A DNA stretch of 64,000 nucleotides from Desulfatiglandales bacterium (GTDB lineage Bacteria > Desulfobacterota > DSM-4660 > Desulfatiglandales > Desulfatiglandaceae), in NCBI GenBank assembly GCA_963666345.1, contig OY762721.1:3456001-3520000 (forward strand), read 5' to 3'. A program made the position numbers and the translations under genes. Below the pieces are notes generated by a model. The model did no database searches. It was given only the letters and a program-made list of their open reading frames with translations, and was not told the origin of the DNA. Shown piece by piece: positions 11,221 through 19,134 of the stretch. Numbering within the stretch: the stretch's first letter is position 1; each line of letters opens with the position of its first letter.

Positions 11221-11594
11221 CTTTTTTTGTCTCCTTAGATTTTTACGATGCTGTTGATGCCTCGCTGTGATTCTTGAGGGCGAAAGGGTAAGCTAATTCC
11301 CTTTTTCAGTATTACAAGCCCGCCTCTAAATATTTCCCAATAGACCGGCTCAAAATTTGTCAAAAGATATCTATAATGCCACGGTTAAGAATAAGAAAAG
11401 GTAAGAATACCTTATGACTTATGTTAGATAATAGGTGGTCAGGTTCGGGGCCGGGAGGTAACCGTCCTAAGTTGCGTTATTGTAAAACCTTAAAGGGCAA
11501 AAAGCAGCCTTAAAAAGGATATCTCAACATTTTCCTCTTCCCTTATAAAATTGGTTCTTCTCCAACTTAGTTGTCGAAGAGGGTCCAAGGATTC

Positions 11595-11955
11595 GAGGGT
11601 TTTCTTTCCAGGGATTTGATCATCGCTTTGAACATTGCCCCGACATCCCTTATTTCCCTTCTTAATCTCTGAAGCTTACTTCTTTCAAATAATCCAGGTC
11701 AGCTGATGTCATGTCCCGGGTTTCCAATTCACAGTCTGAACCATATGCAATAAAGAAAAATTGCATATACTCTATAGCCGTTTTTTTCCCATACCCTCAG
11801 GCGGTATCCCTTGATATGAAAACAGCGGATCTTCTGATTCGGGGGGGTAAAACAGTATTGCTCATATTTAAAAAAACGCTTCGTTTCTTCATACATATGC
11901 AAACAAGGTGTATTCGATTTTTGTCTAACGTTTAGCTGCCTATGATCTTTAAGCT
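11595..11955 (-). pseudogene. Degenerate four-helix-bundle (23S rRNA IVP / bAvd-like) protein gene
   Basis: Minus-strand translation L.VRQKS...IRRSAV...A*GYG...IAYGSDCELET; start codon lost, in-frame stops. Confidence 0.7.
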
Positions 11956-11987
11956 TTTCACTCGAACCCGCGGCCCCTTGACCCCTC

Positions 11988-12046
11988 GAAACCGGGAACC
12001 CGCTGCAAAGCAGTGGGACTGAGCTGAGCTAAGCAAGGGCAAAGAA
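11988..12046 (+). repeat. ~60-bp dispersed hairpin repeat, copy A
   Basis: GAAACCGGGAACCCGC-hairpin-GTGGGACTGAGC...GCAAAGAA; also at 36316, 45934(-), 46337. Confidence 0.8.
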
Positions 12047-12088
12047 TCCTTCATTTAGACCAACTCTTTTGGAGATAATCCAAAAAAT

Positions 12089-12694
12089 TTAACTCATGGG
12101 TTTTGCAAGTCTTTCACAAATCCCGACTGCAAGGGCATAAATGATATCTGATGCAAAATGCCGAACAATGGTTTTATCATAAAGAATCTTAGATTCGGTC
12201 GGGAATTCATCATCACCTCTCCAATACAAGACAGCTACCGGAATTCTGGGCGTTATTTCAAAAATATAGGCAGCATCGGCCAGGCTGACGGGGATACCCT
12301 TTAGTTCTTCACATCTGTTATTGAAACCTTCCATGTCGCTGTCAAATCGAGTTGAAATTAAATTCGTCGGAATCGCATGTGGGCCTCGGAAAAACGTCAT
12401 GCCCTCGGTGATGTCTTTTTCGGAAATCCATTGGCTTGAGGCTTCAATTTCCTTTACCTTAAGAAGATAATGAACAATAAAAAGCTCAAAATAGGAATGA
12501 AATCTTTGAGGGTTTTTGCCGATACATTCAATTCTAAACTGATGTGGATATATCCTGTATCCTTCACCCCATAAGGACACTGTGTAAAACTTGTTCGCAT
12601 TATCATACGAGCATAATGCCCTTGTGCATACTTCCATGGGATTTTGTTCTGATAGTTCCTGAAAATAAACCCTGTCTATCAAACGTTTCATCAT
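12089..12694 (-). CDS. DUF3786 domain protein
   Basis: WISEKD..EG..FFRGPH, PRIPV.VLYW.GD.EFP.ESKILYD pattern. Confidence 0.8.
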   Translation of the reverse strand: MMKRLIDRVYFQELSEQNPMEVCTRALCSYDNANKFYTVSLWGEGYRIYPHQFRIECIGKNPQRFHSYFELFIVHYLLKVKEIEASSQWISEKDITEGMTFFRGPHAIPTNLISTRFDSDMEGFNNRCEELKGIPVSLADAAYIFEITPRIPVAVLYWRGDDEFPTESKILYDKTIVRHFASDIIYALAVGICERLAKPMS

Positions 12695-12821
12695 AATTTC
12701 CCGTTTGGTTTGTAACAGCCAAACCCCGGTCTCCACTTACGGTCGGCATCAAGAATGGGGGAGTTCTACTCTTTTCATCTGTTCAAAAGTTAAAGGCGAA
12801 TTTGACCTATTCTCATAAATA

Positions 12822-13574
12822 TCATTGTCTTTGATGCTTTAACAGGTTCTCTATGTAGATTTTCATTTCCCGGTAATGAGATCCCTTCCAGTAAAACCTG
12901 CCGCATTCGCAACACACATGAAATTCATCGTAATATAAGTCTGTCTTAGGCAGTAAGCGGGCCTTGATCGCTTCTTTGTCAACTTGAGTGAGAACTCCGT
13001 TACATACCAGGCAGCGGCGAAAGGCCGTGACTTGAGCAAAGAGGTCAAAACGATTCAAGACCTCCGTGAGTTGATCGTAGACATGGTCAGCCCTTATCCA
13101 GTAGCCATGTGTAACCGATTTATTCATCAGGATCCCGCGGTCGCGAGTCAGGATGATCCGCCTGTCAGTCAATGAGAGATCTATAATTTCAATATCATCA
13201 TAATCATTTCTGTAAAGGATATCAAATCCGAGCATGCGTAATTTCCTTGCAAGTTTTCCCAGATGAACGTCCGCTATGAACCTGGGATCTCGAAGGGGCT
13301 TCGCCCTGAGTCTTGTTACCTGTGAGACATCTACGCTTTCAAAGACCGGATATACCGATACATAATCTCCATTCTGCAGTTTGCAGTCAAACCGGACCGA
13401 GGCTCCGTTAACTAGTATAAGATCCACTTCCGTATGAGGTACGCCCAAGGCCTCGATACAGTCCTTGATGGCAGGGGTACCCTTAAACGAATAACCGAAT
13501 AAATGATATCTATGACCAGCTGATAAGAAATCATTAAGCTCGGCATAAAACCGAAAATAGGCCTGTTTTTGCAC
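12822..13574 (-). CDS. Mut7-C RNase domain protein with N-terminal ubiquitin-like (Ub-Mut7C) domain
   Basis: FRFYAELNDFL, KD.IEALGVPHTEV, FIADVHLGKLAR.LR.LGFD, LTRDR, RC..CNG, C..C.R.YWKGSH. Confidence 0.9.
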   Translation of the reverse strand: MQKQAYFRFYAELNDFLSAGHRYHLFGYSFKGTPAIKDCIEALGVPHTEVDLILVNGASVRFDCKLQNGDYVSVYPVFESVDVSQVTRLRAKPLRDPRFIADVHLGKLARKLRMLGFDILYRNDYDDIEIIDLSLTDRRIILTRDRGILMNKSVTHGYWIRADHVYDQLTEVLNRFDLFAQVTAFRRCLVCNGVLTQVDKEAIKARLLPKTDLYYDEFHVCCECGRFYWKGSHYREMKIYIENLLKHQRQ

Positions 13575-13616
13575 GAATCATATCTCTTTGAAATCTTTAT
13601 TTGAATTAATTTAAGT

Positions 13617-13688
13617 GCATAACGCTTAGGTCAACTGCCGATAAGGAGCCGCAGCGGATTCCCGGTCAGGTGAACCCGGGTGTTTGGG
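13617..13688 (-). repeat. attC-like integron recombination site
   Basis: Minus strand: CCCAAAC 4 nt after toxin stop, inner arms GGTtCACCTGaCCGG / TCGGCAGTTGACC with two unpaired bases, ends in GTTATGC (near GTTRRRY). Confidence 0.6.
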
Positions 13689-13692
13689 GTTC

Positions 13693-14036
13693 TTATTCTC
13701 TATAAATCATTCTATTCAAAAGAATATCTTCAACAGTCCGTCGTGTATCAATCACGGATAAAACAAAGACTATTTTTCCAGCGATCCTGCAAATTAATCG
13801 ATATGGCAGGATAACCAATTCCCTGTATTGGAATATGCCTTGGCCCTGAAGTTCCGGTGCAATGCGGCCTCTTTCTGAAAGGGTAAAGAGAGTTGAAGCC
13901 TTTTTCTTTATTTTTTTAGCATAGTTAGCGCATTCTGAGTGTTTTCTGCTGAAATGTACTCATTGATTTGATCTAATAAAAGAGCTGCCTTTGATTTAAG
14001 GTAGGTAAGAGGCTTTATATCATTTGTAATCTTCAT
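13693..14036 (-). pseudogene. Collapsed type II toxin-antitoxin pair: Phd/YefM antitoxin N-terminus fused to RelE/ParE toxin C-terminus, frameshifted
   Basis: MKITNDIKPLTYLKSKAALLLDQINE joined to YISAEN.QNA..; after a slip in an A7 run: IKKKAS.L..LSERGRIAPEL...YRELV...YRLI.RI....VFVLSVIDTRR.VED. Confidence 0.75.
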
Positions 14037-14058
14037 CTTTAACACGTTCGATTTGTAT

Positions 14059-14086
14059 ATAGTACCAAATACGGTCCTATGGTCAA
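14059..14086 (-). promoter_or_regulatory. Putative sigma70 promoter of the TA cassette
   Basis: TTGACC-N16-TACTAT ending 22 nt upstream of ATG 14036. Confidence 0.45.
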
Positions 14087-14100
14087 GGCTGAATTTTGAC

Positions 14101-14150
14101 TGCGAGCGCTGCTAATCACCCGCGCGGTTTTTTGTGTCGGCTGATTGAAT
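14101..14150 (-). repeat. Second, more degenerate attC-like site
   Basis: Imperfect palindrome AATCACCCGCGCGG...TGTGTCGGCTGATT bounding the other side of the TA unit; core boxes are mutated. Confidence 0.35.
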
Positions 14151-14430
14151 CTCATTTAATTTGGAAAAGATATTCCCTTCACAGTCTTCTTGCCCGGAGG
14201 TAGGGATATTAGGGTATTATTGAATGCAGTGATACAACTAATCCCTATTGTTGTCTGATATGAACTGAAGAGTTATGGCTAAAGTTTATGCCATTTTCTG
14301 ATGGGTTTATCTATATAGCCATTTTTATTCTTAAGGTAATTTTCATAAGGGCCATGCCTTACACCCTTGCGAAACGTTGTCTTACATCCCCATGAATAGG
14401 GTTCCCCTTGAAAAATTCAACAGGGGACCA

Positions 14431-14500
14431 GGGGAACGTTCTTAAATAATTCAATAATGTTAAGTTGTTAGAAGTTATTTTGATTATTTAAGGATTGTCC
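14431..14500. repeat. 70-bp imperfect inverted-repeat element (REP/MITE-like)
   Basis: GGAACGTTCTTAAATAAT ... ATTATTTAAGGATTGTCC. Confidence 0.5.
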
Positions 14501-14547
14501 GTCTATCTATTGCACTTTTCAAGGGCCATTTCCGGGTGCTCACCGGG

Positions 14548-16170
14548 CTAGGCCATCCAGGCGGACTCGAGGTAGGTGGTCGAAAAATCGATCATCATCT
14601 TGGGCTGGTTGTTTTTCAGGTCCCAGGAAATGAACGGGCTCAACTGATCGAGGACCATCCCATTTTCCAGGCCCAGTTTATGGGTGATGGCCTCGACAGC
14701 TTCTTTCACGGTGCTGAGGATAATGCTATCCATCTTCACTGTACGGTTGAGTTCTTTCAGGTGCGGATGGCTTTGCACCTGTTCCAGCGCTTCCTCCCAG
14801 TGAATGGCGTCGATCTTACTGCGCAATACATAGGCATTACCTCTGTCCTGAAAGATCAACAGGGCAGGGTTGGTTCGTACCGGTGTATTCCTGACCTTTT
14901 CCTGGGCCATTTTGATGGAAATATGCTCGAGGAGTTCGTTCTTTTTCATAATTTCAGGGATCTGTCTGGCCTGTACACGCTCAAATATGAATTCCTGACC
15001 GTCGATGGTGATCTCCTTCAGACGGGTCGGATCAAAGCCCAGGTCCATAATGTCGCCGATGGTGAGGGGATTTTCAAAGGACTTTTCCCTCTCCTCCAGC
15101 CAGGTCTTGAGGTTGGGTCTTCGGTAATTGGGAAGGGATTCAACTGTCCTGGCCGGCCTGATCTTAAAATCGTCCCGGATCCTGGAGAGCAGTTCGAGGT
15201 CCCCGACGACCATGGGATTTTTTGTCTCCAGTTCACTTGGGGCGTAGGACTTCAACTTCAGCCTCGAGACCTCGGGGGAGACGGTAATCTGCATCATGGA
15301 TTCCCCGCCCGTATACCCCAAAAGATTTCCGATTCGTCTCCTGAAGGCTATGAGTTTTGTCACAAAGCGGGTGAACATAAATCTCATGAACGGGGATGAC
15401 TCCCGGTTTTTCAACTCCGTCTCAAAATAGGTCGTCAGGGTCTGATACAACTCCTTGAATTCAGCGATGGTTCTCTTCACCATCATCTGGTTGTCTCTCA
15501 TATCGATGATGGTTCGTTTTCTTCCGAGGTGGTAGAGCAGTTTCAGTATGGGTTCTTTCAGGTCCTTGTTTTCGAATCCCCTGGGCAGATAAATCATGTA
15601 GTTATGGTCCTTGCCGGAGGGTGACTCCCCGATGATGTCTTCGACAGGATTCCATGCGTGTTTGAGATAGATATCATATGTCGGGTCGTCGTTGGGGATG
15701 ATATTATCCAGGATACCAATCGCCGATTTGCTCGACAAGAAATCGGCAAAGTGGGTGAGGATCTGATTGCCCAGCCCCCTTTTTCTATAGGGCACGGCCA
15801 CTTCAACGTATACCAGGTAGTAGCAGGGGAGGGGTTTTTTGAGGTACAGCATATTGAGTCGCCCCAGCTTTTCTCCCGACTCTGCACTGATCTCAAGGAC
15901 CCGGAAACCGTTTTGGGCGTTGCCCGGTGTGTTGCGGTTGATCTTCGCCCCTGAGGCGGTAGCGGCGACAAGCTCCCACAGGTTGTTGAAAAGATCCGAG
16001 ACAACAGGCGCGTCGGCCAGGCCGAGTCGCATCCCTTCATCAATCAGGGAGACTAATCCGAGCCTCTCGTTCAGGCTCAAATTCTTTCGTTCAACAGGAC
16101 GATGTGAGGAGACAATCCTTCGGGCCGTTCCCGCTTGAATAGCTATCGGCTTGAAGTTTTTTTGGTCCAT
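14548..16170 (-). CDS. GNAT acetyltransferase-domain protein with large uncharacterised C-terminal region (540 aa)
   Basis: YLVYVEVAVPYRKRGLG (motif A, R-x-x-G-x-G) and YDIYLKHAW (motif B-like); remainder unrecognised. Confidence 0.7.
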   Translation of the reverse strand: MDQKNFKPIAIQAGTARRIVSSHRPVERKNLSLNERLGLVSLIDEGMRLGLADAPVVSDLFNNLWELVAATASGAKINRNTPGNAQNGFRVLEISAESGEKLGRLNMLYLKKPLPCYYLVYVEVAVPYRKRGLGNQILTHFADFLSSKSAIGILDNIIPNDDPTYDIYLKHAWNPVEDIIGESPSGKDHNYMIYLPRGFENKDLKEPILKLLYHLGRKRTIIDMRDNQMMVKRTIAEFKELYQTLTTYFETELKNRESSPFMRFMFTRFVTKLIAFRRRIGNLLGYTGGESMMQITVSPEVSRLKLKSYAPSELETKNPMVVGDLELLSRIRDDFKIRPARTVESLPNYRRPNLKTWLEEREKSFENPLTIGDIMDLGFDPTRLKEITIDGQEFIFERVQARQIPEIMKKNELLEHISIKMAQEKVRNTPVRTNPALLIFQDRGNAYVLRSKIDAIHWEEALEQVQSHPHLKELNRTVKMDSIILSTVKEAVEAITHKLGLENGMVLDQLSPFISWDLKNNQPKMMIDFSTTYLESAWMA

Positions 16171-16211
16171 GGAATTAGGATTCCTTTTTCAAGAACTGCT
16201 GATTTTCAACC

Positions 16212-16245
16212 AAAAAAAAACCGTGGGCTTGCTTGCCCACGGTTT
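16212..16245 (-). terminator. Intrinsic terminator in the 5' leader of the GNAT gene (attenuator)
   Basis: Minus strand AAACCGTGGGC-AAGCAA-GCCCACGG-T9, about 40 nt upstream of ATG 16170. Confidence 0.85.
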
Positions 16246-16263
16246 AAGAAAGTAACTCGACAC

Positions 16264-16335
16264 TCAGGCCATGGGCAGATATCTCCCCCTAAAACCGAAG
16301 ATAAAATAGAATCTGGCCAGCGTGTTTTTCGTCAT
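16264..16335 (-). CDS. Putative Phe/Tyr-rich attenuator leader peptide MTKNTLARFYFIFGFRGRYLPMA (23 aa)
   Basis: GAGGT RBS 8 nt before ATG; 4 Phe + 1 Tyr within 7 codons; last codons contain antiterminator segment TGCCCATGG. Confidence 0.7.
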   Translation of the reverse strand: MTKNTLARFYFIFGFRGRYLPMA

Positions 16336-16374
16336 CTCGATAGACCTCAACAAAAATTGTATATTTGATGTCTG

Positions 16375-16404
16375 AACTTAACCGTATTAGGAAATATTTG
16401 TCAA
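16375..16404 (-). promoter_or_regulatory. sigma70 promoter for leader peptide and GNAT gene
   Basis: TTGACA-N18-TAAGTT on minus strand about 40 nt upstream of the leader ATG. Confidence 0.6.
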
Positions 16405-16499
16405 ACTTATTTTTTTACGTCCCAAACGGTTATCTAGGGAAACATGGCTTGAGAGGTATATGACTGATTATACGGTTCCAATGCTTGATCAACGATCCA

Positions 16500-16956
16500 C
16501 TCGATAATCTCCCGCAGCTGATGCTCCTCCCCAACTTCGACCACCTTCCGTCCTTTAACTCGAAAGCCCAGACGGGCTTTAACATTTTCAATAAAAAGTC
16601 GCTTTGCCCCTGCCATAACATCCTTTGAGAAAAACGCCCTTTTTTCTCCGAAAAAGCTTGATATAGACCCTAAATACAGGTTTTTTATAATTTTTCTTTA
16701 ACGCTTTTTAGTAGTTAACCGATCCTCATCCTCAGCATCCTCCAAAAATCGGTGCGACGATTTTTGAAAAGTGCATTCATTTTTTGCTCCCTAAACCATC
16801 GGTCCTTTTTTCATCTCAAATGGCTTTTTGCTTTTGCCATCACCAAAAACCTATAATGCCCTTTTCGGTACCAAAAATAACGATATAGGGTCTTACAACC
16901 TTTTTTTATGCCTTTCCTATGTTATTCTATTAAATTATCGTGGCCTGACCCCTTTT
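16500..16956 (-). mobile_element. Internally deleted remnant of a REP-associated (RAYT/Y1) transposase locus
   Basis: MAKAKSH start at 16840 and FIENVKARLGFRVKGRKVVEVGEEHQLRE resemble N- and C-termini of such transposases; AAAAGGGGTCAGG motif at the end. Confidence 0.4.
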
Positions 16957-16988
16957 TTGTCTTTTGCTCGGCACTCATCCACGAGTAT

Positions 16989-18041
16989 CTATTGAAAGTC
17001 CTTCCAAGCCTTTAGATATGATTCAGTCGACCACCGACGGCCATTGTAATTGTAGTCCTCAAATCGCACTATACCAAGCTGATGATTACGACCATTATCC
17101 ATAATGTATTTTCTTCCATTTACCTCAAAGAGGCACGCCCTGTGGTTATATCCCCCAGCTGAAATTTCCGAATCAGTGACGATGTAGCTAACCGCTTTGT
17201 ACCCTGCTTTTTGAAGACAGTAGCGCGTGAACGCCGTGATCATCATACAGTGCCCCACATTATAGCGAAACACATACCCGTAATTTTCAAGCATGCCCGT
17301 TTCATAATGATAGCGAATCCTCGCCCTCTCATAATAGTCCACCAACTCAGGTGAATTCAAACGAGCGGTAACGACATCGAAATCCTCCCAGCGCGTGTCA
17401 ATGACCAGCGCTTTGTCTATGATTTGACGGGCCTCTCTTGAAAAGAATTCAGGGACGCTCTTGTACATGTAAACAATGAATTCGTTTCGCTGCTCCGGTT
17501 GAACCCTCCTCAATGTGTTTCTGTCTTCTTTTTTCGTAGCTTCTATGATTTGCTGGTAATCCTTTTCCGATAGCCTGAGCACTTTGCGTCTAAGGCGATC
17601 CTTGAAGTACCATGCGCGGGTAAGCAAACGAGATAGAGTGTACGTTTGAAGTATTGAGTCCAGTTCTTCCACATTGCCATCCTGTGCCATCCAGAAAAGC
17701 GTTTGCAAAGGTGTACAATACTTTCTCACCTCGGGCAGGCCGACTTTATACATCTTTTCAAAAACCTTATCAAACCGTTCCGGGTCCTTTCTATAGACTT
17801 CTGCGAGCCTTTCCAGTGCTGCGGCCTCGGAATGGGAGATGCCATCCTGGATTTCAGGCAACTTACCAAGTTCGTTGGCCATAAGTCTGTTGCTTTGCGC
17901 GAACTTTTCATGTCCAAGATAATGCCTGACCACCGGGTTTGGTTTCGTGGATACAAGAAGTGCGCAACCTGTCACGAATGGCGTTAGAGCGAGAGCAGTG
18001 GCTGCAAACAAGAAAAGAGGTCTACCGAATTTGTCCCTCAT
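16989..18041 (-). CDS. Putative lipoprotein with C-terminal transglutaminase-like (Cys-His-Asp) domain
   Basis: Signal/lipobox-like VTGC; GHC....F..YCL.KAGY.A, NHRAC, YIMDNG. Confidence 0.55.
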   Translation of the reverse strand: MRDKFGRPLFLFAATALALTPFVTGCALLVSTKPNPVVRHYLGHEKFAQSNRLMANELGKLPEIQDGISHSEAAALERLAEVYRKDPERFDKVFEKMYKVGLPEVRKYCTPLQTLFWMAQDGNVEELDSILQTYTLSRLLTRAWYFKDRLRRKVLRLSEKDYQQIIEATKKEDRNTLRRVQPEQRNEFIVYMYKSVPEFFSREARQIIDKALVIDTRWEDFDVVTARLNSPELVDYYERARIRYHYETGMLENYGYVFRYNVGHCMMITAFTRYCLQKAGYKAVSYIVTDSEISAGGYNHRACLFEVNGRKYIMDNGRNHQLGIVRFEDYNYNGRRWSTESYLKAWKDFQ

Positions 18042-18179
18042 AAACTGAATCCTTTCTTAATGTAATGAAAGTGAACGCCCTTCAGTAAACAATCATCAAC
18101 CTTAAATCCACCCAAGCTATAGAGAACCTATTTCCGGTTCATGATTTCTAATAGGCGACCCCGAATGCACAAGCCCGCC

Positions 18180-18761
18180 TTATTTCCTCAGAATATTACC
18201 GGCCTCGCTACCAATAATCCCAAGAGGTCTCACAACCGCGTTATACATCTGGGACTCGTAAGCCGGAAGATTTCCTCCCTCACCTTTTCCGTCTTTGTCG
18301 CAGTCAAGGAAAATGCCGTCTCTGCTTTTTATCGTGCCTCTTAAATGCATGATATAAACGCCTGTCACAAGAGGCGCTCCGCTGACCCATGTAATAAAAT
18401 TCGGCCTTATCCGGACAATGTTCCCCCGGGTTGAGGCATCCACCCAGAAATGATTTTCATTCTTTTTTAAGAGTCTGATATTATTGTTCTGCCGGACGGT
18501 CGATGCGTCTATTTCCTTATTAAAAATAACAGCCGCAGAAAGATGTGGGACTCCGTTAAGAGATATCTCCTCAAATTTTACCTGCTGTACCTGAAAGGCC
18601 CCCGGCACAACAGTTGCGCCTTTTGGGTTTTTTATGGAGGGCGGATAAAATTTATTGAACTGGTTACGCTTTGTCCCGGGAAACTGATTTTCGGCAAGGG
18701 CTTGCGGGCTTGTGAAAATTACAGAACAGAGCATTAGCACTAAAATTTTAAGACCTTTCAC
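18180..18761 (-). CDS. Secreted hypothetical protein with Ig-like (Big_5-like) domain
   Basis: Signal peptide ending ALA; FNKEIDASTV, PL..GVY...L..TIKS.DG..LD; GGAGG RBS. Confidence 0.55.
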   Translation of the reverse strand: MKGLKILVLMLCSVIFTSPQALAENQFPGTKRNQFNKFYPPSIKNPKGATVVPGAFQVQQVKFEEISLNGVPHLSAAVIFNKEIDASTVRQNNNIRLLKKNENHFWVDASTRGNIVRIRPNFITWVSGAPLVTGVYIMHLRGTIKSRDGIFLDCDKDGKGEGGNLPAYESQMYNAVVRPLGIIGSEAGNILRK

Positions 18762-19134
18762 TGTACGCCTCCTTTTTCTTCTGTTTGCCTTTTTTTGAAC
18801 CTAAGGCTTTACTTAAGCGGTAGCGGTAAATCGTGCGCTCAAAGCCTGCCATGGACGTAAATTAGTGGGGTGAAGGTCCTCTCTGTGCCTGACGTGCAGC
18901 TATGAGAGGGTTTTTCTTGAAATATCGCCCAATCTCAACACAGACAAAATATGGTTCAGAAGAAATATGAAAAACCGTATCAGGATGAATCCGATTAATA
19001 TACTGTATATATTAACCAAAATACCAGCCTAAGACAACCCCCTTGGCCAAAGGTTACGGCGCGTCAGTAGGGCGGAAGCGATGCTACGGTGGCTGATGAA
19101 AGGGGACAAATATCAAAGGTAGATCCGGTCCATT

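Follow-up and report, generated by a model that had tools for sequence, protein, structure and literature searches.

What switches on a gene for a "hypothetical protein", and what does the switch say about that protein? The question is raised by P0001, a gene of 540 amino acids (aa; 14548-16170, minus strand) in a stretch of 64,000 nucleotides (nt) from a Desulfatiglandales bacterium (assembly GCA_963666345.1, contig OY762721.1, positions 3,456,001 to 3,520,000; here called the window, in whose numbering positions are given). An earlier note, made from the sequence alone, had claimed that an attenuator sensing phenylalanine (Phe) and tyrosine (Tyr) precedes this gene. Having compared the leader with those of related genomes, we conclude that the gene is very probably controlled by a ribosome-mediated leader-peptide transcription attenuator of the trpL/pheL type; classical leader-peptide attenuation, as outlined in PMC11802643, is known from trpL, pheL and pheM. 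An attenuator amounts to a declaration by the cell itself that it needs a gene whenever a particular charged transfer RNA (tRNA) runs low. In the present case the declaration concerns an orphan family of proteins with a GNAT and a kinase-like domain, often fused to a metallo-beta-lactamase (MBL)-fold domain. A "hypothetical protein" is thereby turned into a concrete hypothesis, namely a role in Phe/Tyr supply in anaerobes, and an orphan protein family of sulfate-reducer relatives would be tied to aromatic amino-acid supply.

Architecture of the leader

The unit lies on the minus strand and opens with a promoter-like site read from the sequence (16375-16404), made up of the -35 hexamer TTGACA (16404-16399), an 18-nt spacer and the -10 hexamer TAAGTT (16380-16375). 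The -10 hexamer agrees with TATAAT at three of six positions (T1, A2 and T6), which is why the site is missing from the listing of the consensus scan. A TTGACA stands at the equivalent relative place in most relatives' leaders, and transcription would start near 16368. A Shine-Dalgarno motif, GAGG (16344-16347), is located 8-9 nt 5' of the ATG at 16335, with which a leader open reading frame (ORF) of 23 codons plus TGA begins (MTKNTLARFYFIFGFRGRYLPMA; 16264-16335, stop codon 16266-16264). Its codons 9-15 (16291-16311; TTC TAT TTT ATC TTC GGT TTT) read F-Y-F-I-F-G-F, so that four Phe codons and one Tyr codon fall within seven, and the whole leader is without tryptophan (Trp).

Downstream of the control codons, a short segment has a choice of partners. 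Region 1 (CACGCTGGCCA; 16314-16324, within codons 4-8) is the 5' strand of helix P1, and its partner in minimum-free-energy structures is 16271-16261. Region 2 (16261-16277), which spans the last four leader codons and the stop codon, holds this P1 3' strand (TGGCCTGAGTG, 16271-16261) and, overlapping it, the 5' strand of the antiterminator (TGCCCATGG, 16277-16269). Region 3 (CCGTGGGCA, 16234-16242) is at once the 3' strand of the antiterminator and the 5' arm of an intrinsic terminator (16212-16245). The terminator hairpin (16245-16218) has an 11-bp stem (AAACCGTGGGC / GCCCACGGTTT) with seven G-C pairs and the loop AAGCAA, is followed by nine T (16220-16212), and is the strongest terminator-like site of the region in the consensus scan. 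The ATG of the 540-aa ORF (16170) comes 41 nt past the T run. The 9-bp antiterminator duplex has an energy of -17.8 kcal/mol, P1 of -14.7 and the terminator of -20.1, and a gap of 13 nt (16290-16278) lies between the last Phe codon and the antiterminator strand. The layout drawn in the earlier note, from promoter, ribosome-binding site, leader ORF and aromatic run to the complementary strands, the 13-nt gap, the GC-rich terminator with its nine T and a gene start about 40 nt further on, is thus found as described.

These elements suggest the following mechanism. Transcription would begin at the TTGACA-N18-TAAGTT promoter, and a ribosome would translate the leader of 23 codons. Given ample Phe-tRNA (and probably Tyr-tRNA), it would reach the TGA at 16266-16264 and cover region 2 (16277-16261), the terminator at 16245-16212 would fold, and the transcript would end 41 nt before the gene. 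If the leader were left untranslated, region 1 (16324-16314) would pair with region 2 and the terminator would again form. When charged Phe- or Tyr-tRNA is short, a ribosome stalled on codons 9-15 would cover region 1 and leave region 2 free; the freed UGCCCAUGG could then pair with CCGUGGGCA once that arm is made, no terminator would form, and read-through into the 540-aa gene would follow.

Folds of the nascent transcript behave as this model requires. The RNA was ended just before the terminator 3' arm, and the ribosome was assumed to cover nt -12 to +17, counted from the first base of the P-site codon. With no ribosome, P1 forms 9 pairs and the antiterminator none. With the A site at codon 9, 11, 13 or 15, the antiterminator forms all 9 of its pairs, and with the ribosome at the stop codon it is masked and forms 0. 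The structural features of the trpL/pheL class are therefore present in this leader, judged by layout and predicted folding: a promoter and a translatable ORF, a cluster of control codons, a terminator, an exclusive antiterminator together with a helix between regions 1 and 2, and a stop codon placed for masking.

Conservation of the leader with its gene

Homologues of the 540-aa protein were sought in 61 genomes of the same order and found in 28, the window's genome included, and the DNA upstream of all these loci was read for a terminator preceded by a short ORF that contains an F/Y run. A leader ORF rich in Phe/Tyr plus a terminator stands upstream of the gene in 26 of the 28 genomes. In 24 genomes a short F/Y-run ORF is followed by a terminator, mostly with a TTGACA hexamer 5' of the ORF; in addition, the leader lies about 400 nt 5' of the gene in one genome (G006) and is divided over two contig ends in another (G016). 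The contig stops within the gene in G019, and by the criterion used G040 has no leader ORF, just a terminator-like hairpin. The genes farther upstream vary among genomes, and it follows that the leader travels with the gene.

This conservation bears on the simplest rival explanation, that a short ORF lies by chance beside a terminator serving an upstream transcription unit, with no part in regulation. Composition is what speaks for it: among 902 short ATG ORFs (10-45 codons) in the window, one has at least five aromatic residues per seven codons, and 20 block-shuffled windows hold 0-3 such ORFs each (mean about 0.65), so that one aromatic-rich short ORF per 64-kb window is about what shuffling gives. 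However, the leader is separated from the upstream ORFs by a promoter-like site, the whole unit accompanies the gene in 26 of 28 genomes despite differing upstream neighbours, and the helices are backed by covariation. Already contradicted by conservation, a chance origin is exceedingly improbable, and it is conservation and covariation, rather than composition, that argue for the feature being real.

The conservation also has the form expected of a translated sequence. A survey of leader codons gave 59 rows, which after removal of 9 duplicates left 50 distinct leaders (19 of type B and 31 of type A, two types described below). All 50 have a start codon (ATG or GTG), a frame that stays open through the aromatic run and a stop within region 2. 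The F/Y run is conserved across relatives with synonymous TTT/TTC and TAT/TAC changes (TTT 174 and TTC 18, TAT 118 and TAC 36 in the 50 leaders). Furthermore, where the type-B alignment (A1) has gaps within its coding part, they measure 6, 9, 12 or 15 nt, all multiples of three, and the TGA stop is invariant among ten aligned type-A leaders. An untranslated RNA switch, either a riboswitch or a protein-binding leader in which the ORF is incidental to a U-rich conserved sequence, would account for the conservation of P1, P2 and the terminator as RNA and for a U-rich run that reads Phe-rich in every frame. Yet it leaves unaccounted for the open frames of all 50 leaders, the coding indels in multiples of three, the invariant TGA of type A and the Shine-Dalgarno motif before the ATG, and no Rfam family matches even at E up to 1. 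We regard such a switch as very improbable.

Two leader types and covariation of the helices

The leaders fall into two types. Type-A leaders comprise that of the window and those of loci whose product has an N-terminal MBL-fold domain fused to it; their peptides end in ...FFYFRxxxVPxG and stop, the motif UGCCCRUGG lies at the last codons, and the terminator is CCGUGGGCA...GCCCACGG-U8. Type-B leaders stand in front of most unfused homologues, and their peptides end in ...FYFYFSGRxGMP and stop, with a mean content of 3.4 Phe, 2.7 Tyr and 0.1 Trp. In type B, GUCACACAC in codons 3-5 pairs with UGUGUGAC just past the stop, and the terminator, GCGGAGCACACGCUCCGC-U8, is strikingly conserved and nearly invariant between genera.

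Ten type-A leaders were aligned, namely that of the window, three of fused genes and six of aro genes. The antiterminator (16277-16269 with 16242-16234) is paired in 94.9% of cells, as against 33-46% in slid controls. Columns 94 and 144 vary together (CG4/AU2/GC2), and because column 144 lies in the terminator loop, this covariation does not come from the terminator hairpin itself. Columns 99 and 139 read CG8/UA1/UG1. None of 500 shuffles gave an antiterminator covariation score as high. P1 and the terminator show 87.3% pairing when taken together, and at 11 of their pairs both bases have changed; on each of five measures, all 500 shuffles stayed below the observed value; the terminator by itself is paired in 99% of cells. 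RNAalifold without a supplied structure returned the same P1 and the same terminator. The upstream Phe/Tyr-rich ORFs and the compensatory changes in antiterminator and terminator by which the earlier note had proposed to check its pheL/pheM/trpL-type geometry are thus borne out among these relatives, and the alternation of folds in the window leader.

The type-B leaders share with the window leader the gene family, the F-Y-F-Y-F run, a leader ORF, P1 and a terminator, but they differ in RNA sequence and in the target of region 2 (UAG-UGUGUG), which complements the terminator loop and the start of the 3' arm rather than the 5' arm. This second pairing involves 98% of cells in the 19 leaders of A1, and one leader (L012) shows a double change from U-A to C-G. 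Type B would have an unusual antiterminator logic, since region 2 has two complements, codons 3-5 on the one hand and the terminator loop with the opening bases of the 3' arm on the other. Masked folds of the 19 type-B leaders were mixed, with P1 and the loop-pairing helix nearly isoenergetic and the mask leaving region 1 uncovered. At one further locus (L093, G004:C148), a second aromatic-rich short ORF (…SSPAYFCLYFWRGPP…) directly follows a type-A leader a short way before the contig end, possibly forming a tandem attenuator.

A leader family of aromatic amino-acid genes

To which amino acid would the switch respond? Two covariance models were built, R2 from the type-A leaders and R1 from the type-B alignment A1. 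R2 finds matches in 74 of 101 related genomes, with at most four per genome. Outside the window, the genes behind the 29 best R2 loci are aroK, mostly with aroC after it (18), aroC (3), the gene of 3-deoxy-D-arabino-heptulosonate 7-phosphate (DAHP) synthase with that of 3-dehydroquinate synthase (2), a DeoC-type aldolase (1), the fused MBL-540-aa gene (4) and one unclear gene; 16 of the proteins were confirmed by Pfam and the others were judged on their N-terminal sequence. Additional matches of the family precede aldolase-pheA pairs and pairs of prephenate dehydratase (PDT) and prephenate dehydrogenase genes. Searched with R2, the window's own genome yields two credible leaders, that of the window (E 1.2e-17) and, outside the window, one before pheA (E 4e-8; L073, G000:C1:2228714-2228864, plus strand). 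The second leader encodes MSGFSEKFFFFFMGSNLPMR, with Phe as its only aromatic residue, and lies about 18 nt before a 368-aa pheA (CM_2+PDT+ACT).

Trp occurs besides Phe and Tyr in 21 of 25 leaders of aro genes, which belong to the common pathway, and the pheA leader has Phe only; judged from these sequences, the composition of a leader follows the product of the genes it regulates. Membership in one family with the leaders of aroK-aroC, DAHP synthase and pheA lends direct comparative support to an aromatic amino-acid signal. We accordingly read the window leader as a probable sensor of Phe, and probably of Tyr also.

The same family speaks against another rival, a sensor of the TnaC or ErmCL type that works by nascent-peptide arrest or by arrest dependent on a drug or metabolite, in which the conserved peptide (…GR..LPM. 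stop) would halt the ribosome upon a ligand or a ribosome-targeting compound rather than upon tRNA charging, and in which the GNAT, kinase-like and MBL folds would be those of modifying or resistance-type enzymes. The C-terminal residues of the peptide are indeed conserved (L/M-P-M-G/D stop), and the regulated domains share folds with acetyltransferases, phosphotransferases (APH, WaaP) and metallo-beta-lactamases. The conserved C-terminal codons, however, are the antiterminator strand and covary with the terminator arm, so that their conservation is explained by RNA pairing. Moreover, arrest at the stop codon would hide the antiterminator under the ribosome and so promote termination, and leaders of the same family precede aroK-aroC, DAHP synthase and pheA with a composition that follows the amino acid made. 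An arrest sensor is thus very improbable.

The family appears to be new to the collections. Rfam 15 gave no match at E<=1 in window positions 14000-19000 and no leader family in the loci of 16 relatives, and no covariance-model match to Phe_leader or the other curated Rfam leader families was obtained. In the full-text literature, subscription journals lying outside this search, no aromatic leader-peptide attenuators were found in delta-proteobacteria or Desulfobacterales, nor was the 540-aa family; a look-up of terms in PMC4833913 and PMC545781 returned no mention of such leaders or of the gene family. The RNA family is order-wide and absent from Rfam 15, and with a mechanism that is itself textbook, the regulated gene family is the point of interest.

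The regulated protein

P0001 begins with a disordered stretch (residues ~1-58), followed by a GNAT fold (residues ~75-200, nt 15948-15571), long helices (residues 205-281) and a putative kinase-like domain (residues 295-540, nt 15288-14551), all on the minus strand. The earlier note had spoken of a GNAT-domain gene; the GNAT fold is supported, but it does not stand alone, given the C-terminal domain, and the Pfam match is below cut-off. P0001 itself scores 15 bits against PF00583 (E 0.031; cut-off 20.7), and PF00583 is found at E<=0.1 in 23 of 24 family members, with a best E of 3e-07. R129, G132 and G134 of the acyl-CoA motif R/Q-x-x-G-x-G/A are invariant in the 24 sequences. The AlphaFold model has a mean predicted local distance difference test score (pLDDT) of 69.6, with only 50-83 in the GNAT part. 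For that part Foldseek returned NatD, Naa50, RimI and AtaT at E ~1e-4 (template-modelling score by target 0.4-0.5), and the Atlas neighbours of the protein are all GNAT. A PDB profile search gave only hits at E >=0.18, though three GNAT chains align to the same region, and NCBIfam held nothing for P0001.

Folded alone, residues 295-540 reach a pLDDT of 86, and this predicted domain resembles protein-kinase-like enzymes. VIA-align places WaaP first (Z 7.2, root-mean-square deviation 4.4, 157 residues aligned), with APH, Bud32, RIO, YihE and IucA/C at Z 5-7, a range that the tool calls "middling", and Foldseek returned IRE1/IRAK4 at E 2e-3. In the 24 sequences K385, E386, E397, R398, N434, D442, R443, N445, H457 and E460 are invariant. 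Weak matches to the GtgE peptidase (Pfam E 0.008; 4mi7 E 0.56) found no support in the fold search.

The family has at least 971 relatives, and the one closest to the window protein is a fused form of 854 aa (78% identity). Fusion of the protein with an MBL-fold domain, which matches PF00753, PF12706 and PF19583, occurs in many relatives. In the window's genome no close MBL orthologue was found elsewhere, the best match having 26% identity. The gene is monocistronic here and in most relatives, and no conserved downstream partner gene was found, the neighbours being variable and often convergent.

The MBL partner and the probable amino-acid signal

Stand-alone MBL genes, with 50-67% identity to the domain in the fusions, have their own leaders. 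Phe-rich, type-B-like leaders precede stand-alone MBL genes of 307-313 aa in five genomes of a sister family (L059, L062-L064 and L070, in G049, G091, G095, G055 and G041), in which the 540-aa query gave no match. At three of these five loci a hotdog-like ORF and a second MBL-like ORF follow, as judged by sequence motifs only. In addition, the family includes Tyr-only leaders, such as L116 (G013:C91; …KLYYYYYSAGG…), L119 (G049:C6; …IFHYYYIGRKGLPGD) and L120 (G049:C27; …IYRYYYYGRTGLPGD). Tyr-only leaders (…LYYYYYS…, …FHYYYIG…) precede stand-alone MBL/ODP-fold genes in G013 and G049, and G049 has one MBL paralogue with a Phe-rich leader and one with a Tyr-only leader. The MBL genes with Tyr leaders are solitary, and the Tyr-only leader L120 precedes a gene of the 2-hydroxyglutaryl-CoA-dehydratase family (HGD-D, PF06050) and a BcrAD/BadFG activase gene. 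This distribution suggests amino-acid-specific roles of the MBL enzymes.

These leaders also bear on whether the same attenuator might sense Phe-tRNA alone, the Tyr codons being passengers or merely serving a U-rich sequence. Control codons 9-15 of the window hold four Phe and one Tyr, and in the account of Corynebacterium glutamicum given in PMC11802643 the AroR leader (Phe-Tyr-Phe) answered Phe limitation and not Tyr availability. But in relatives the F-Y-F-Y-F alternation is strictly kept while TAT and TAC replace each other synonymously, and Phe-only leaders (pheA in the window's genome, stand-alone MBL genes) and Tyr-only leaders (YYYYY, YRYYYY) occur within one family. Because the two coexist there, leader composition looks tuned rather than accidental, and sensing of Phe alone is unlikely.

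Since the GNAT-kinase protein is often fused in relatives to an MBL domain whose paralogues have Phe or Tyr leaders, its role would be related to both Phe and Tyr, and most likely it would act on their supply. From the Phe-only and Tyr-only leaders on MBL paralogues, the Tyr-only leader on the HGD-D pair and the mixed Phe+Tyr leader on the fused or GNAT-kinase form, one may tentatively go further: the GNAT-kinase protein and its MBL partner could be enzymes of an undescribed Phe/Tyr supply route in anaerobic Thermodesulfobacteriota, one in which aryl precursors are salvaged or bypassed, possibly via aryl-acyl-CoA thioesters. This proposal is possible but doubtful. The window's genome (one contig, 96.7% complete) has no match to the prephenate/arogenate dehydrogenase family PF02153 at E<=0.001, and PF02153 is found above cut-off in 38 of 61 relatives and 14 of 14 control genomes. 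The idea that the gene family complements a missing prephenate dehydrogenase was dropped, the 61 genomes showing no pattern (both 17, gene only 11, PF02153 only 21, neither 12).

Neighbouring sequence

On the 3' side of the 540-aa gene, 13575-14547 is an AT-rich, gene-poor stretch of about 970 nt whose only same-strand ORFs are shorter than 50 aa, and an Rfam scan of 11500-14700, which covers it, gave no match. Upstream of the promoter lie a 63-aa ORF (16430-16621, minus strand) and a 350-aa ORF (16989-18041, minus strand), neither of which has a Pfam match; the latter has a lipoprotein-like N-terminus (…ALTPFVTGC…). It was considered as the missing MBL domain and rejected, blastp against the fused proteins giving nothing better than E 1.6.

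Weighing the proposed attenuator

Several points weigh against reading the leader as a trpL/pheL-type attenuator of the 540-aa gene. The -10 hexamer is weak, and the aromatic composition of one short ORF is, taken alone, within chance expectation. The aligned genomes are kin, so the shuffle statistics overstate significance. With the ribosome at F15, the last control codon, region 1 lies outside the assumed footprint, and P1 could then compete for the UGG that it has in common with the antiterminator. On the full transcript at equilibrium, the terminator wins in every masked fold. Hence the switch would have to be kinetic. That the terminator wins on the complete transcript is usual for classical kinetic attenuators. 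No known gene of biosynthesis, transport or a synthetase stands under this leader, and the Tyr codons need not be sensed, given C. glutamicum aroR as reported in PMC11802643.

Comparison with known systems

Among known systems, the E. coli leader-peptide attenuators pheL-pheA and pheM-pheST, as covered in PMC11802643 and PMC3082878, are similar to the window leader in having a short ORF with a Phe run, a terminator ahead of the structural gene and an antiterminator that excludes it, and in the place of the stop codon, at which a terminating ribosome would mask the antiterminator. In contrast to them, the window leader has Phe and Tyr control codons, no Rfam match and a host lineage that looks Thermodesulfobacteriota-like by the names of its homologues, and its gene encodes no biosynthetic enzyme or synthetase of known function. 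The aroR leader upstream of aroF in C. glutamicum (Neshat et al. 2014, as described in PMC11802643) resembles what is proposed for the window leader, since a ribosome stalled at its Phe/Tyr codons increases the transcription of an operon of the aromatic pathway, with Phe limitation as the only effective signal there, but it belongs to another phylum, is a different RNA and has DAHP synthase as its target. Further counterparts are the sister leaders of aroK-aroC, DAHP synthase, aldolase-pheA and pheA in relatives and of pheA in the window's genome, which are homologous RNAs that align with the window leader as R2 matches and share with it the TGCCCRTGG..TGA motif and the CCGTGGGCA...GCCCACGG terminator. 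Unlike the window leader, they carry Trp codons too (21 of 25) or, at pheA, Phe only, and they control known genes of aromatic biosynthesis.

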